Source of the DNA: Candidatus Babeliales bacterium
GTDB taxonomy: Bacteria; Babelota; Babeliae; Babelales; Vermiphilaceae
DNA length: 37,402 nt
Assembly: GCA_044451405.1 (NCBI GenBank)
Contig: JBIOKB010000005.1
Span: 1 to 37,402, forward strand
Reading direction: 5' to 3'
Part shown: one piece after another, positions 3,001-6,000 of the stretch
Numbering within the stretch: the stretch's first letter is position 1
Layout of the letters: the number at the start of each line of letters is the position of its first letter
Position numbers: made by a program

Positions 3001-6000
3001 TACCATCAGATACTCCGTTATATAAACATTATATTACTATGATACTTTCAACCATCGGTCGCTTAGGGGTACTTGTATTCCTCTGGTATCATATATTGCT
3101 ATCACCAACAATTAATTTTATACTTTTGCTATCGTCTTTTTTAGGAGCTTTTTGGGTCACCCTACTACGCCCTGTCTACGGGGATAAACACAAGTCGTAA
3201 GGGCTTCGTAGGGCACGCCAGTATCACCTAGGGGAATAGCACATGGAAGGCTTAAATCTTCTGCACGTAGAACAGTGGAAGCCATTGGCGCATTATGGTT
3301 TTACCCATCCTTTTTTTTATCTTAATGCAGAAACTATTGTATATACCTGGGTTGCTCTCAGCATTCTCATCATACTTGTACTTCCTATTAATTTAATTTT
3401 AAGCGCACGCAACAGCACCATGCGTTTTGCACTTGTTTCATCCCTTGAATCCTTTGCACAATTTACTACCCAAACGCTCGGCGTATTTTCATTCGAACAT
3501 TTTAGCTTTGTTGCATCATTATTTATTTTTATTGCCATATGTAACTGCTTGTCGGTCATTCCCTGGCTTGAAGAACCAACACAAGATTTAAATACTACCC
3601 TTGCCCTTGGTATTATTTCATTTCTTTATGTACAATGGCACGCCATACGCGCCCAGGGTATAACGCATTATATAAAAGAATACTTTCAACCTTTTTTTAT
3701 CATGTTTCCACTGCACGTTGTGGGTAAATTAGCGACCATTATTTCCATTTCATTTCGTCTTTTTGGAAACATATTTGGTGGCGCAACTATTTCCCACCTT
3801 TATTTTGCGCTCATTAAAAGTTCTATCTTTTATGAAATTCTCGGGTTATTGAGCTTGAACATGCTCGTTACTTTCTTTTTTGGCCTTTTTGAAGGGCTCC
3901 TGCAAGCATTTATATTTTCTATGCTTACCCTCACTTATTTATCTATCGCATTACATGGTGAAATGGATGAAAAAACTGACGAAGGGATTCTTACATGATG
4001 CTCACGTCTGATTACTTACACTATGGCACTATTGCCCTTGCAGCAGCAATTAATGCCGTTGGTGTTGGCATTGGTGAAGGTATAACAAGCCGTGCGGCTA
4101 TTGAGGCAATCAATATTCAACCACACGCCAAAACAGACATTATTAAAACGGCGGTATTTGGCATGGCACTTATTGAAACCGCTGCTATTATGGGTATTAC
4201 CGTAGCACTTATTCTGCTTATCAGTACCCAAACAAACACAAGCGATTATGCACGCATTGCTGAAAGTGGTATTGCGCTGGCTATTTGTTTACCGGGCCTT
4301 TTTATTGGTTTTGTATCAGCATTTCCTGCCCAAGAAGCATGCTTATCTATTGCCCGTCAGCCATTTTTTAGTCAGAAAATATTGCGCTTTATGCTCCTTA
4401 CCCAATCAGTACTGCAAACGCCCATCATTTCTGGTTTTATCATTGCCATGTTAATTCGTGCACAAGCAGAATATGTAACCACTCTCGCACAAGGATTACA
4501 ACTGCTCGCAAGCGGATTATGCATTGGATTAGGCAGCATCGGCCCTTCTATTGGATTAGGTATATTTGCACGGACTGCATGTAAAAGCATTAGCATTAAC
4601 CGTGATGCCTATAATCGATTACTGTCTTTTACCTTAGTCAGCCAAGCTATTATTGAAACATCAGTTATTTTTGCGCTCGTAATTTCTATTTTAATTGTCT
4701 TTGCAAACCCTGCATTAACTATAGTTGGCGGTCTTGCATTACTCGGTGCTGCAATAAGCACTGGCCTTGGTACGTTTGGTGCGGGCATTAGTAATGGACG
4801 CACCTCTGCCGCTACGTGCAAAGCAATTGCACTCAATCCTGATACGTACACCCAATTGTCACGTACCAGCATGATTGCGCAAAGTCTTATTGATACTACT
4901 CCTATTTATGCGTTAATTGTTTCTATAATTCTTATTTTCTGGGGCACATAAAATCATGATGCATCAATCACTGTTGCACGCTATCGGCAACACTCCTTTA
5001 GTTAAATTACCCATAAGTAACCATGGTTCTATTTATGCAAAGTTAGAATATTTAAATCCTGGTGGCAGTGTTAAAGATCGCTCGGCATTATTCATGATTG
5101 AAGAAGCAGAACGCAGTGGCAAACTTAAGCCAGGCGGCACCATTATTGATGCATCGTCAGGAAATCAGGGCATTGCATCAGCTATGATTGGTGCGATTAA
5201 AGGATACAAAGTTATCGTCACGGTATCTGAAAAAATTAGTGAAGAAAAATTAAAAGCGATACTCGCGTATGGTGCGCAAGTTATCATGTGCCCTTCAACA
5301 AAATACATTGAAGATCCTAATAACTACCATCGGCGCGCAGTGGAACTGAATAAAAATACACCAAATTCTTTTATGCCTAACCAGTATTTCAATCCCTTAA
5401 ATGCTCAAGGACACTATACCCTTTTAGCACCTGAGGTGTGGAAACAAACAAACGGCACTGTGACACACTTTTTTGCCGCTGCAGGTACGTGTGGCACTAT
5501 CAGTGGTGTTGGGCGTTATTTAAAAGAAAAAAATCCTGCAATTAAAATATTAGCAGTAGATTCTGATAAATCGTTTCGTTCTACCAACGGCAATCCACAG
5601 CCATATAAAGTTGAAGGTATGGGCATCGATTGGAATAATTCACCGGTTCTTGATGAATCTGTCATTGATGATTATCTTCCAGTCAGTGATGATAATGCGC
5701 TTGGCATGCTCAAAACATTGGCATCCAAACATGGTATTCTTGCTGGACCAAGTAGCGGTGCTGTTGCATGGGCTGCACAGGATTATGCACGGCATCTTAA
5801 AGACGGTGATGTTGCGGTTATCATTTTTGGTGATTCAGGGCGTGCGTATCTTACGAAGAATTTTTATTAAATATACTGCATAACAACACCCAAATCGATC
5901 GGTTCAGGACGCATGCAATAGGTGCCTTCTATCAAAGGGGTACCAACGCAATTAAGAAGATTGTATTCACGTCCATAGTGTAACGGTGTTACATATACAT

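Follow-up and report, generated by a model that had tools for sequence, protein, structure and literature searches.

A predicted four-hairpin F-type ATP synthase subunit c encoded directly after the only atpB of a Candidatus Babeliales genome

The window, that is, the whole stretch of 37,402 nucleotides analysed here from a Candidatus Babeliales genome (G000, 95.7% complete), carries on its forward strand an open frame of 318 aa at 3995..4951, which was found by ORF calling and is termed c4 below. Immediately 5' of it lies atpB (3243..3998, forward strand), which encodes the Fo subunit a and was identified by a PF00119 match at 1.4e-33, the single match to this family in the genome. The ATG of c4 at 3995 shares the tetranucleotide ATGA with the TGA stop of atpB, and a GAAGGG sequence is located 9-14 nt 5' of that ATG. 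In a chloroplast case described in the available part of PMC3241655, initiation at such an ATGA overlap was independent, so the arrangement need not imply coupled, equal synthesis of the two proteins.

Further 5' on the same strand, a small membrane ORF of 100 aa (2898..3200) showed no Pfam or NCBIfam match. The site 5' of atpB is the usual place of atpI, and 45 of 49 loci have a same-strand ORF there, which in 42 cases is 70-115 aa long; the 100-aa ORF itself was detectable by tblastn in 5 of 20 loci. Its identification as AtpI was rejected on account of the missing Pfam match, which did not appear even at E <= 5, and of an hhalign probability of 0.8% against the Desulfobacterota ORFs 5' of atpB. 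A search of RNA data sets with positions 2898-5870 of the window listed none, the sole match being a soil metagenome with which few of the sequence words were shared.

In contrast with the usual F-type subunit c, whose polypeptide of about 70-90 aa folds into one hairpin, c4 comprises four hairpins and eight transmembrane helices in a single chain. The four PF00137 stretches together reached 125.9 bits against a Pfam cut-off of 24, and in a six-frame search of the genome each hairpin was detected singly (E values of 2.4e-9, 4.9e-5, 2.3e-11 and 8.8e-15 for hairpins 1 to 4), which is far above chance. Hairpin 1 (4031..4216) holds the ion-site residue E61 (4175-4177), together with E28 at the helix-1 position that is occupied by Q in most relatives. 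Hairpin 2 (4268..4456) has Q141 (4415-4417) at the ion site, with no carboxylate, and its cytoplasmic loop reads R121-Q122-P123 (4355-4363), the R-Q-P loop being typical of F-type c. Hairpin 3 (4505..4696) bears E221 (4655-4657), and hairpin 4 (4742..4933), the one closest to monomeric c, bears D300 (4892-4894), so that three of the four hairpins have a carboxylate halfway along the second helix.

All four hairpins could be aligned nearly gap-free with the monomeric 81-aa c of the same genome (C23:7694-7939). Their identities to monomeric c, averaged over 13 genomes, were 28.4, 25.7, 29.5 and 34.7% for hairpins 1 to 4, where 13 of 14 pairs were kept and one with only three detected hairpins was left out. 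The idea that the terminal hairpins (1 and 4) resemble monomeric c more than the inner ones (2 and 3) found no clear pattern in these means and was not counted as support. The four hairpins in one 318-aa chain, the overlap with the genome's only subunit-a gene, the ordinary 81-aa c and the three retained carboxylates had all been put forward in an earlier note on this DNA, and every one of them was recovered here.

An AlphaFold2 model of c4 displayed eight helices with a pLDDT of 97.2 and a pTM of 0.94, while the pTM of 0.90 previously given for the Atlas model was reproduced; a structure search of the Atlas with c4 returned only unrelated families at TM <= 0.35. The best NCBIfam match of c4 was an F-type c, and the model NF009998 was matched at 133.7 against a cut-off of 116, a whole-protein score that sums several hairpins. 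The V-type K models, on the other hand, all remained far under their cut-offs (56.3/211, 54.1/188, 49.8/127 and 39.5/101). The closest PDB sequence was 4bem_J, the c1 subunit of Acetobacterium woodii, at the 1.9e-17 reported earlier, and all 12 PDB matches were F-type c; the same c1 was also the top fold match of the model in Foldseek (TM 0.76 by target, rmsd 1.8 A). Proteolipids of the V/A type (Enterococcus hirae NtpK, the eukaryotic c and c'', and archaeal forms), which resemble c4 in having duplicated hairpins and in having lost some ion sites, ranked second and lower, with TM of about 0.8 by target. Their sequence family and partners differ from those of c4, which are F-type: atpB (PF00119) adjoins the gene, and a PF00006 search of the genome retrieved one alpha subunit, one beta subunit and Rho only, without any V/A catalytic subunit. 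On the strength of these matches and partners, c4 is assigned by sequence to the F type as a subunit c with four hairpins.

The stand-alone c, 80 aa long in the phylum, is the first gene of a separate c-b'-b-delta-alpha cluster, in which delta then follows in 27 of 30 loci and atpB never does; two ORFs of 123 and 163 aa, which gave no PF00430 match, are termed b-like on account of their position alone. Only one atpB, one alpha, one beta and one gamma gene were detected in the genome. Meanwhile, atpB was located immediately 5' of c4 in all of 20 loci from 19 families, which extends the 16 of 16 counted before, and the estimated spacing between the two genes ranged from -17 to +26 nt in 53 loci of 49 genomes, with an overlap in 27 of the 53. 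Owing to this constant place 3' of atpB, the tight gaps and the single set of atpB, alpha, beta and gamma, c4 is taken to be a component of Fo.

The fused form is not a peculiarity of one genome. In a sample of 201 genomes covering 20 families and 120 genera of the phylum, a c4 match was obtained in every genome, each with a best E <= 8.9e-24, so the universality formerly claimed from 121 of 121 genomes holds in the larger set. The frames were open and near full length, at about 315-354 aa, across the 150 matches listed and five divergent genomes, with the exceptions of G131 (query residues 75-314), G063 (where the contig end cuts the match) and G155 (an in-frame TGA). In the databases, 560 relatives were retrieved at E <= 1e-5, and such multi-hairpin genes are at present annotated as plain 'subunit C' or as hypothetical. 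Tandem c genes that were misjoined, or a decaying pseudogene, could in principle mimic a fused frame, but nothing in favour of such an account was found; the open frames among the matches listed, the 560 relatives and their conserved residue patterns refute it, and its probability is regarded as negligible.

The conservation of individual residues was followed in 126 full-length cluster representatives. A carboxylate occupies the ion site of hairpin 1 in 125 of them, of hairpin 2 in 22, of hairpin 3 in 117 and of hairpin 4 in 117, a distribution in line with the smaller count on which the earlier note had relied. The residue at hairpin 2 is Q in 95 and E in 22 representatives, at hairpin 3 E in 117, and at hairpin 4 D in 75 and E in 42; the pattern E-E-E-E was found in 16 of the 126, and Glu is retained in hairpin 2 in five of 19 sampled families. 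Since hairpin 2 still bears Glu in these five families and all four sites are Glu in 16 representatives, a lowered ion/ATP ratio cannot be the general cause of the fusion. The cytoplasmic loop of hairpin 2 is the best-conserved motif, being RQP in 107 of 126 representatives and 21 of 21 of the family sample, with P123 invariant in the c4 alignment (A1), whereas the equivalent loop of monomeric c reads K-(Y/H)-P. The residue patterns of the 126 representatives are specific to each hairpin position, and a tree of the hairpins grouped them by position: hairpin 1 formed a clade of 18/18 with a support of 0.98, and hairpins 2 and 3 each formed a clade of 16/18. Taken with the open frames and the high pLDDT, these position-specific patterns and clades indicate that c4 is a real gene under selection.

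These patterns also bear on the thought that c4 may not belong to the rotor at all, acting as a membrane partner or assembly template of subunit a that mimics a quarter of the ring. Its invariable pairing with atpB would suit such a role, as would the character of hairpin 2, which is the least c-like of the four (18 bits against a monomeric-c profile). However, carboxylates are retained in hairpins 1, 3 and 4, the R-Q-P loop is the best-conserved motif and the model superposes on ring subunits with an rmsd of 1.8 A, features without an obvious use outside a rotating ring; a non-rotor function is therefore considered very improbable.

The stand-alone c was detected in addition to c4 in 198 of the 201 genomes, each of about 1 Mb, which broadens the co-occurrence of the short and long forms first noted in 31 of 31 genomes. 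No stand-alone c was detected in G182, G186 and G198, which are 86, 86 and 95% complete. Its mean column identity is 70%, compared with 43% for c4, and Q30, E63, S/T64, S65 and Y68 are invariant in 30 of 30 sequences. Retention of the monomer in 198 such small genomes, with its key residues invariant, argues that both forms are needed.

Single-hairpin chains are the rule among F-type c subunits, and the c1 of A. woodii is cited as the known exception in the available text of PMC9171764 and the preprint 10.64898/2026.10.01.756066, which, for archaeal proteins, also give subunits of 1, 2, 3 or 13 hairpins. The A. woodii ring, as far as described in the accessible parts of PMC9171764 and PMC7911925, is built from nine c2/3 and one c1, the dead hairpin of which carries Gln. 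Within the same partial coverage, the c1 of A. woodii (and of Clostridium aceticum) is, like c4, an F-type protein with more than one hairpin whose gene stands straight after atpB; c1 of A. woodii likewise has a one-hairpin c as partner and a Gln in place of the carboxylate in the dead hairpin. The two differ in that c4 has four hairpins with three live sites (four in some lineages) and c1 two hairpins with one, and in that the monomeric c gene is adjacent in A. woodii, according to the portion of PMC7911925 at hand, whereas it resides at another locus in the case of c4. Moreover, c4 is universal in a phylum of ATP-importing parasites, whereas c1 is found in acetogens, and their identity is about 28% over two hairpins (hairpins 3-4 of c4), as taken from the PDB alignment only. 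Engineered fusions of c, such as the c10 of Bacillus PS3, function as a rotor in the account given in the available part of PMC8809890; these constructs consist of identical hairpins with artificial linkers, whereas c4 is of natural and ancient origin and its hairpins differ according to their position. No description of the four-hairpin form was found in the literature searched.

On balance, it is considered probable that c4 and monomeric c together form a hybrid c-ring, with c4 present in few copies, and that the enzyme chiefly pumps ions at the expense of imported ATP. According to this proposal, c4 would be a true part of the rotor in the one F1Fo ATPase of the organism, its four c hairpins covalently joined by a fusion that would predate the last ancestor shared by the sampled members of the phylum, the hairpins having become specialised individually afterwards. 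One or a few copies of c4 would enter each ring and the monomeric 81-aa c would supply the remainder, in parallel to c1 with c2/c3 in A. woodii. Hairpins 1, 3 and 4 of the c4 of this genome would ferry the ion past subunit a, and hairpin 2, with Gln141, would act as a neutral blank.

Two other ring compositions have to be weighed against this hybrid. A ring could be assembled from c4 alone; two copies would then provide 8 hairpins and 6 ion sites, three copies 12 and 9, and monomeric c would have a different function or act as a reserve. Of the two c genes, c4 is the one that accompanies the sole atpB, stand-alone c went undetected in three genomes, fully fused engineered rings are active (in the part of PMC8809890 that was available), and a ratio of 3 or 2 ions for each ATP would be appropriate to a pump driven by ATP. 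Nevertheless, the missing monomers may reflect assembly gaps, and a strongly conserved c that heads the stator/F1 cluster in 198 of 201 reduced genomes would be hard to explain if it had no role in the only rotary enzyme, which makes a ring of c4 alone rather unlikely. A somewhat poorer chance still is given to a scheme in which c4 and monomeric c each build a homomeric ring. The two rings would be alternatives on one stator and F1, used according to the stage, for instance outside or inside the host, and the coupling ratio or the ion would change with the ring. The separate transcription units of the two genes agree with such a scheme, and so do their ion-site signatures in this genome, which are Q...E(T/S) in monomeric c and E...ET, L...ET and N...DT in the c4 hairpins; neither a regulator nor a second subunit a is present, and we know of no precedent for two alternative homomeric c-rings on one stator and F1.

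The preferred hybrid enzyme would work mainly in reverse, hydrolysing ATP imported from the host and pumping out Na+ or H+, and would keep the membrane energised jointly with a pyrophosphatase. Three ATP/ADP (TLC) translocases and a membrane pyrophosphatase are encoded in the genome, and searches for four respiratory marker families (COX1, RnfD/NqrB, cytochrome bd and the 49-kDa subunit of complex I) gave zero matches. In addition, epsilon consists of an 81-aa beta-sandwich only, and the phylum-level account in the available part of PMC4776705 agrees with an ATP-driven picture. From these four lines of evidence, we infer the direction of the enzyme.

Multi-hairpin F-type c genes are not confined to this phylum. 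The earlier caveat that the form may extend further was borne out by genes with 4, 5 or 6 hairpins that are common in Desulfobacterota, isolates included, as exemplified by Desulfosarcina variabilis, Dethiosulfatarculus sandiegensis and Desulfocarbo indianensis. The view that the Atlas label 'Thermodesulfobacteriota' was an artefact of Babeliales taxonomy was rejected, given that NCBI now assigns Babeliales to Candidatus Babelota and that genuine Desulfobacterota carry multi-hairpin c. The gene order in Desulfobacterota is atpI-atpB-multi c-mono c, with atpB 5' in 74 of 77 loci and monomeric c 3' in 71 of 74; AtpI (PF03899) was identified 5' of atpB at the one locus checked by Pfam, that of Desulfosarcina variabilis. 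The three isolates possess 2-3 atpB genes each, which places the multi-hairpin c in one of several Fo sets. These proteins resemble c4 in having several F-type hairpins per chain, a position directly 3' of atpB and a monomeric c partner, the gene of which is adjacent in Desulfobacterota and elsewhere in the genome for c4. Their carboxylate, however, is restricted to hairpin 1, and where a chain has five hairpins Gln is invariant in hairpins 2-5, so that the ion sites read E-Q-Q-Q(-Q) as opposed to E-Q-E-D in c4, and the hairpins are not orthologous by position. In the hairpin tree they formed a separate clade with a support of 0.79, apart from the position-specific Dependentiae clades, which points to an apparently independent fusion.

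A bolder and more tentative proposal, to which we assign clearly less than an even chance, is that c4 serves as the single-copy keystone of an asymmetric F-type rotor, which would nucleate the ring, set the number of monomeric c subunits and offer the central stalk a permanent dock at the R-Q-P loop of hairpin 2, a hairpin degenerate in other respects, this loop being suggested for the role because monomeric c has K-(Y/H)-P there. Together with the one-site, 4-6-hairpin proteins of Desulfobacterota, c4 might then define a class of hybrid rotors that has arisen more than once in bacteria and has escaped notice, in which the ion/ATP ratio would be set through dead hairpins, not through ring size.

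A four-hairpin c is fixed in all sampled genomes of a phylum of cell-dwelling parasites, whose only rotary enzyme would have to use it, and a second, apparently independent set with 4-6 hairpins is common in sulfate-reducer lineages, cultured strains included. The finding matters for annotation, as the genes now appear under the generic name 'subunit C' or as hypothetical. Meanwhile, these proteins may provide natural test cases for how ring stoichiometry is set, for a rotor with built-in asymmetry and blank positions, and for the tuning of the coupling ratio where the enzyme would be the ATP-driven pump of an energy parasite.

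The gene c4, an open frame of 318 aa at window 3995..4951 (+), contains four ATP-synt_C (PF00137) stretches scoring 125.9 bits against a cut-off of 24 in Pfam, and a six-frame search of the whole genome detected each of them singly, all inside one 323-codon open frame. On the plus strand they form hairpin 1 (4031-4216; ion-site E61), hairpin 2 (4268-4456; Q141 at the ion-site position), hairpin 3 (4505-4696; ion-site E221) and hairpin 4 (4742-4933; ion-site D300), while the helix-1 position, Gln in the 81-aa monomeric c of the same genome, is occupied by E, S, L and N, respectively. 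The four pieces align with one another and with the monomer nearly without gaps, at identities of 18-35% between hairpins and 23-33% against monomeric c. The AlphaFold2 model of c4, built on a 101-sequence alignment (mean pLDDT 97.2, pTM 0.94), displays eight long helices, i.e., four hairpins, joined by links of 5-8 residues. The ATG of c4, preceded by GAAGGG, overlaps at 3995 the TGA of atpB (3243..3998, +; PF00119, 1.4e-33) as ATGA, and a PALP-family gene begins 4 nt past the c4 stop codon. The observation of the earlier note, a 318-aa frame with four PF00137 stretches that overlaps the only atpB, is thereby confirmed.

The remaining subunits are dispersed over the genome (G000; 1.02 Mb, 89 contigs, 95.7% complete), in which atpB is single-copy. 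Contig C23 carries the 81-aa c (7694-7939) and, behind it, a pair of b-like ORFs and the genes for delta (OSCP) and alpha, in this order; C6 carries beta and an 81-aa epsilon (C6:33519-33764, equal to L008:2517-2762), which consists of the beta-sandwich domain only and lacks the C-terminal helical domain; gamma lies on C1. Since the third PF00006 match is Rho, this inventory amounts to a single F1 with a single stator and a single subunit a, whereas c is present in two forms.

Across the phylum, 201 genomes were drawn evenly (20 families and 120 genera, all of one order), and c4 found a match in 201/201, each best E being <= 8.9e-24. Apart from G131 (residues 75-314), every listed match spans roughly 300 residues or more of the 318; the G155 frame holds one in-frame TGA, and among the five most divergent genomes a full-length frame is present in four, the gene of G063 being cut by a contig end. 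Monomeric c was matched at E <= 5e-17 in 198/201 genomes, the 150 places listed being open frames of 82-136 aa; in G182, G186 and G198 (86, 86 and 95% complete, c4 present) no stand-alone c was found, the only signal being at the level of c4-hairpin cross-hits. A set of 20 loci was selected to span 19 families; atpB stands directly upstream of c4 in 20/20, and none of b, delta, alpha, beta and epsilon occurs within 5 kb. The interpretation given in the earlier note, a fused form kept alongside a normal c and next to atpB, stands. The recurrent order is Sua5, a Mur-ligase-like gene, a small ORF, atpB, c4 and, in part, the PALP gene. With heuristic start codons, the atpB-c4 gap was estimated at -17 to +26 nt (53 loci, 49 genomes), with overlap in 27. 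In 27/30 loci monomeric c is followed by delta, and in none by atpB. At E <= 1e-5, 560 database relatives were counted, of which the best 120 are 315-331 aa long, and the named ones among those listed belong to Candidatus Dependentiae or Babeliales under the titles 'ATP synthase F0 subunit C' or 'hypothetical'. The small membrane ORF of this window (2898-3200, +), for which neither a family match nor profile similarity to AtpI was seen, is of a kind (~70-115 aa) kept upstream of atpB in 42/49 loci, and an ORF of any size precedes atpB in 45/49.

Residue conservation was counted in 126 of 150 listed cluster representatives, 24 with lengths outside 295-335 aa being left out and about nine of those aligned being non-colinear multi-hairpin proteins of the Desulfobacterota type. 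The ion-site carboxylate is kept in 125/126 for hairpin 1, 117/126 for hairpin 3 and 117/126 for hairpin 4 (Asp 75, Glu 42), against 22/126 for hairpin 2, where Gln stands in 95; the most frequent patterns are E-Q-E-D (65), E-Q-E-E (21) and E-E-E-E (16). By family (19 families, 21 sequences), hairpin 2 bears Glu in five families, Gly and Met occur in one family each, and the others have Gln. The fusion thus predates the loss of the hairpin 2 carboxylate, which affected only some lineages of the phylum. As the E-E-E-E lineages show, the fusion does not exist for the sake of site loss. The best-conserved motif of c4 is the cytoplasmic loop of hairpin 2, R121-Q122-P123, in which P123 is invariant in the c4 alignment A1 and RQP occurs in 107/126 representatives and in 21/21 family-sample sequences; the same loop reads K-(Y/H)-P in monomeric c. 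The monomer itself keeps Q30, E63, S/T64, S65 and Y68 in 30/30 genomes, residues corresponding to the 'Q....ET' Na+ signature as given in PMC7911925.

The best PDB sequence match of c4 is Acetobacterium woodii c1 (4bem_J, 1.9e-17), aligned to hairpins 3-4, and 12/12 matches are F-type c. Foldseek with the c4 model likewise gave 4bem_J the highest rank (TM 0.76 by target, rmsd 1.8 A), ahead of NtpK of E. hirae and the eukaryotic V-ATPase c, and returned no PDB chain spanning more than two hairpins of c4 (TM by query <= 0.45). The A. woodii ring is biochemically proven to comprise nine c2/3 and one c1, with Gln in the dead hairpin (PMC9171764, PMC7911925), and c4 hairpin 2 shares this Gln at its dead ion site. 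The retention of both c genes in reduced genomes, the single subunit a and F1 and the A. woodii precedent together favour a hybrid ring, of which c4 is fairly probably a low-copy member. The fusion might, hypothetically, serve ring nucleation, a fixed stoichiometry or a fixed gamma/epsilon docking site at the hairpin-2 loop.

The caution that the form may not be restricted to this phylum was borne out. Some cluster representatives had a greater length or aligned with c4 in a shifted register, and one of them, P0169 (406 aa), gave entry to a large family of 324, 404 and 486-aa proteins named from Desulfobacterales, Desulfobacteraceae, Thermodesulfobacteriota and Deltaproteobacteria. A one-genome-per-species scan yielded 399 relatives, the best 80 of which (L101-L180, e.g., L154:6001-6975, L113:6004-7221 and L116:5941-7158) are mostly Desulfobacterota-labelled, a few bearing generic titles only, and include Desulfosarcina variabilis, Dethiosulfatarculus sandiegensis and Desulfocarbo indianensis. 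Among these 80, four hairpins are present in 55 loci, five in 22 and six in 3; atpB lies directly upstream in 74/77 loci with room, and monomeric c directly downstream in 71/74. In Desulfosarcina variabilis, AtpI is encoded upstream of atpB. Only hairpin 1 keeps the ion-site carboxylate; throughout an alignment of 14 five-hairpin forms, hairpins 2-5 have Gln at that position. A tree of 178 hairpins made with FastTree (from 18 proteins of Dependentiae, 20 of the Desulfobacterota kind, both sets taken by rank, and 12 monomers), built on short sequences with moderate supports, recovered Dependentiae hairpin 1 as a clade (18/18, support 0.98) and hairpins 2 and 3 as clades of 16/18 each, hairpin 4 grouping less cleanly. 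All 95 Desulfobacterota hairpins formed one clade separate from these (support 0.79), which points to an independent fusion. Three Desulfobacterota isolates each hold 2-3 atpB copies, so the multi-hairpin module is one of several there, whereas the atpB-c4 module is the only one in Dependentiae. With one site per four to six hairpins, such a chain would be unlikely to drive a ring alone; this, together with the adjoining monomeric c gene, would point the same way, towards a hybrid ring. Many PF00137-like stretches also occur in some c-like proteins of great length, namely P0216 and P0282 (1139 and 1147 aa; labelled Promethearchaeota and Hodarchaeota, i.e., Asgard archaea) and the P0202 cluster (968 aa, 12 members, no names).

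Regarding energetics, the genome encodes three TLC translocases and a membrane pyrophosphatase, and COX1, RnfD/NqrB, cytochrome bd and the complex I 49-kDa subunit were not found in G000 (95.7% complete); by its gene content the organism imports ATP, and no respiratory chain was seen. The epsilon C-terminal domain inhibits ATP hydrolysis, so an epsilon devoid of it fits the hydrolytic direction. We infer the ring composition, the ion and the direction of work alike. For the phylum, PMC4776705 arrives at this picture of an ATP importer with no respiratory chain, and it suggests that the ATP synthase hydrolyses ATP and so keeps up the gradient. A second ATP-driven ion pump in this genome without a visible respiratory chain is a P-type cation ATPase (14842-17412, -; Cation_ATPase_N and Cation_ATPase_C). 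The window also encodes tandem paralogous lactonase-like beta-propeller proteins (PF10282; 6799-8148 and 8151-9494, -) of 449 and 447 aa, whose C-terminal ~100 residues are nearly identical, a third, longer relative 8 kb away (17550-19898, +), a 667-aa ankyrin-repeat protein of a kind typical of host-associated bacteria (25177-27180, -) and a pilin-like protein that bears a methylation motif at its N-terminus (49-531, -).

Among the papers listed by full-text literature searches, none was found to describe an F-type c that naturally has more than two hairpins, nor the Desulfobacterota 4-6-hairpin forms, although papers beyond those searched may mention them; the term 'ATP synthase' is absent from the text of the Chromulinavorax paper. 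A 2026 preprint on rotary ATPase evolution (10.64898/2026.10.01.756066) describes F-type rings as made predominantly of single hairpins and cites A. woodii alone as mixed. The Desulfobacterota forms, independent of c4 and worth reporting in their own right, make c4 less unique; it represents a robust variation on the hybrid-rotor theme, shared across the phylum, rather than a new kind of machine.
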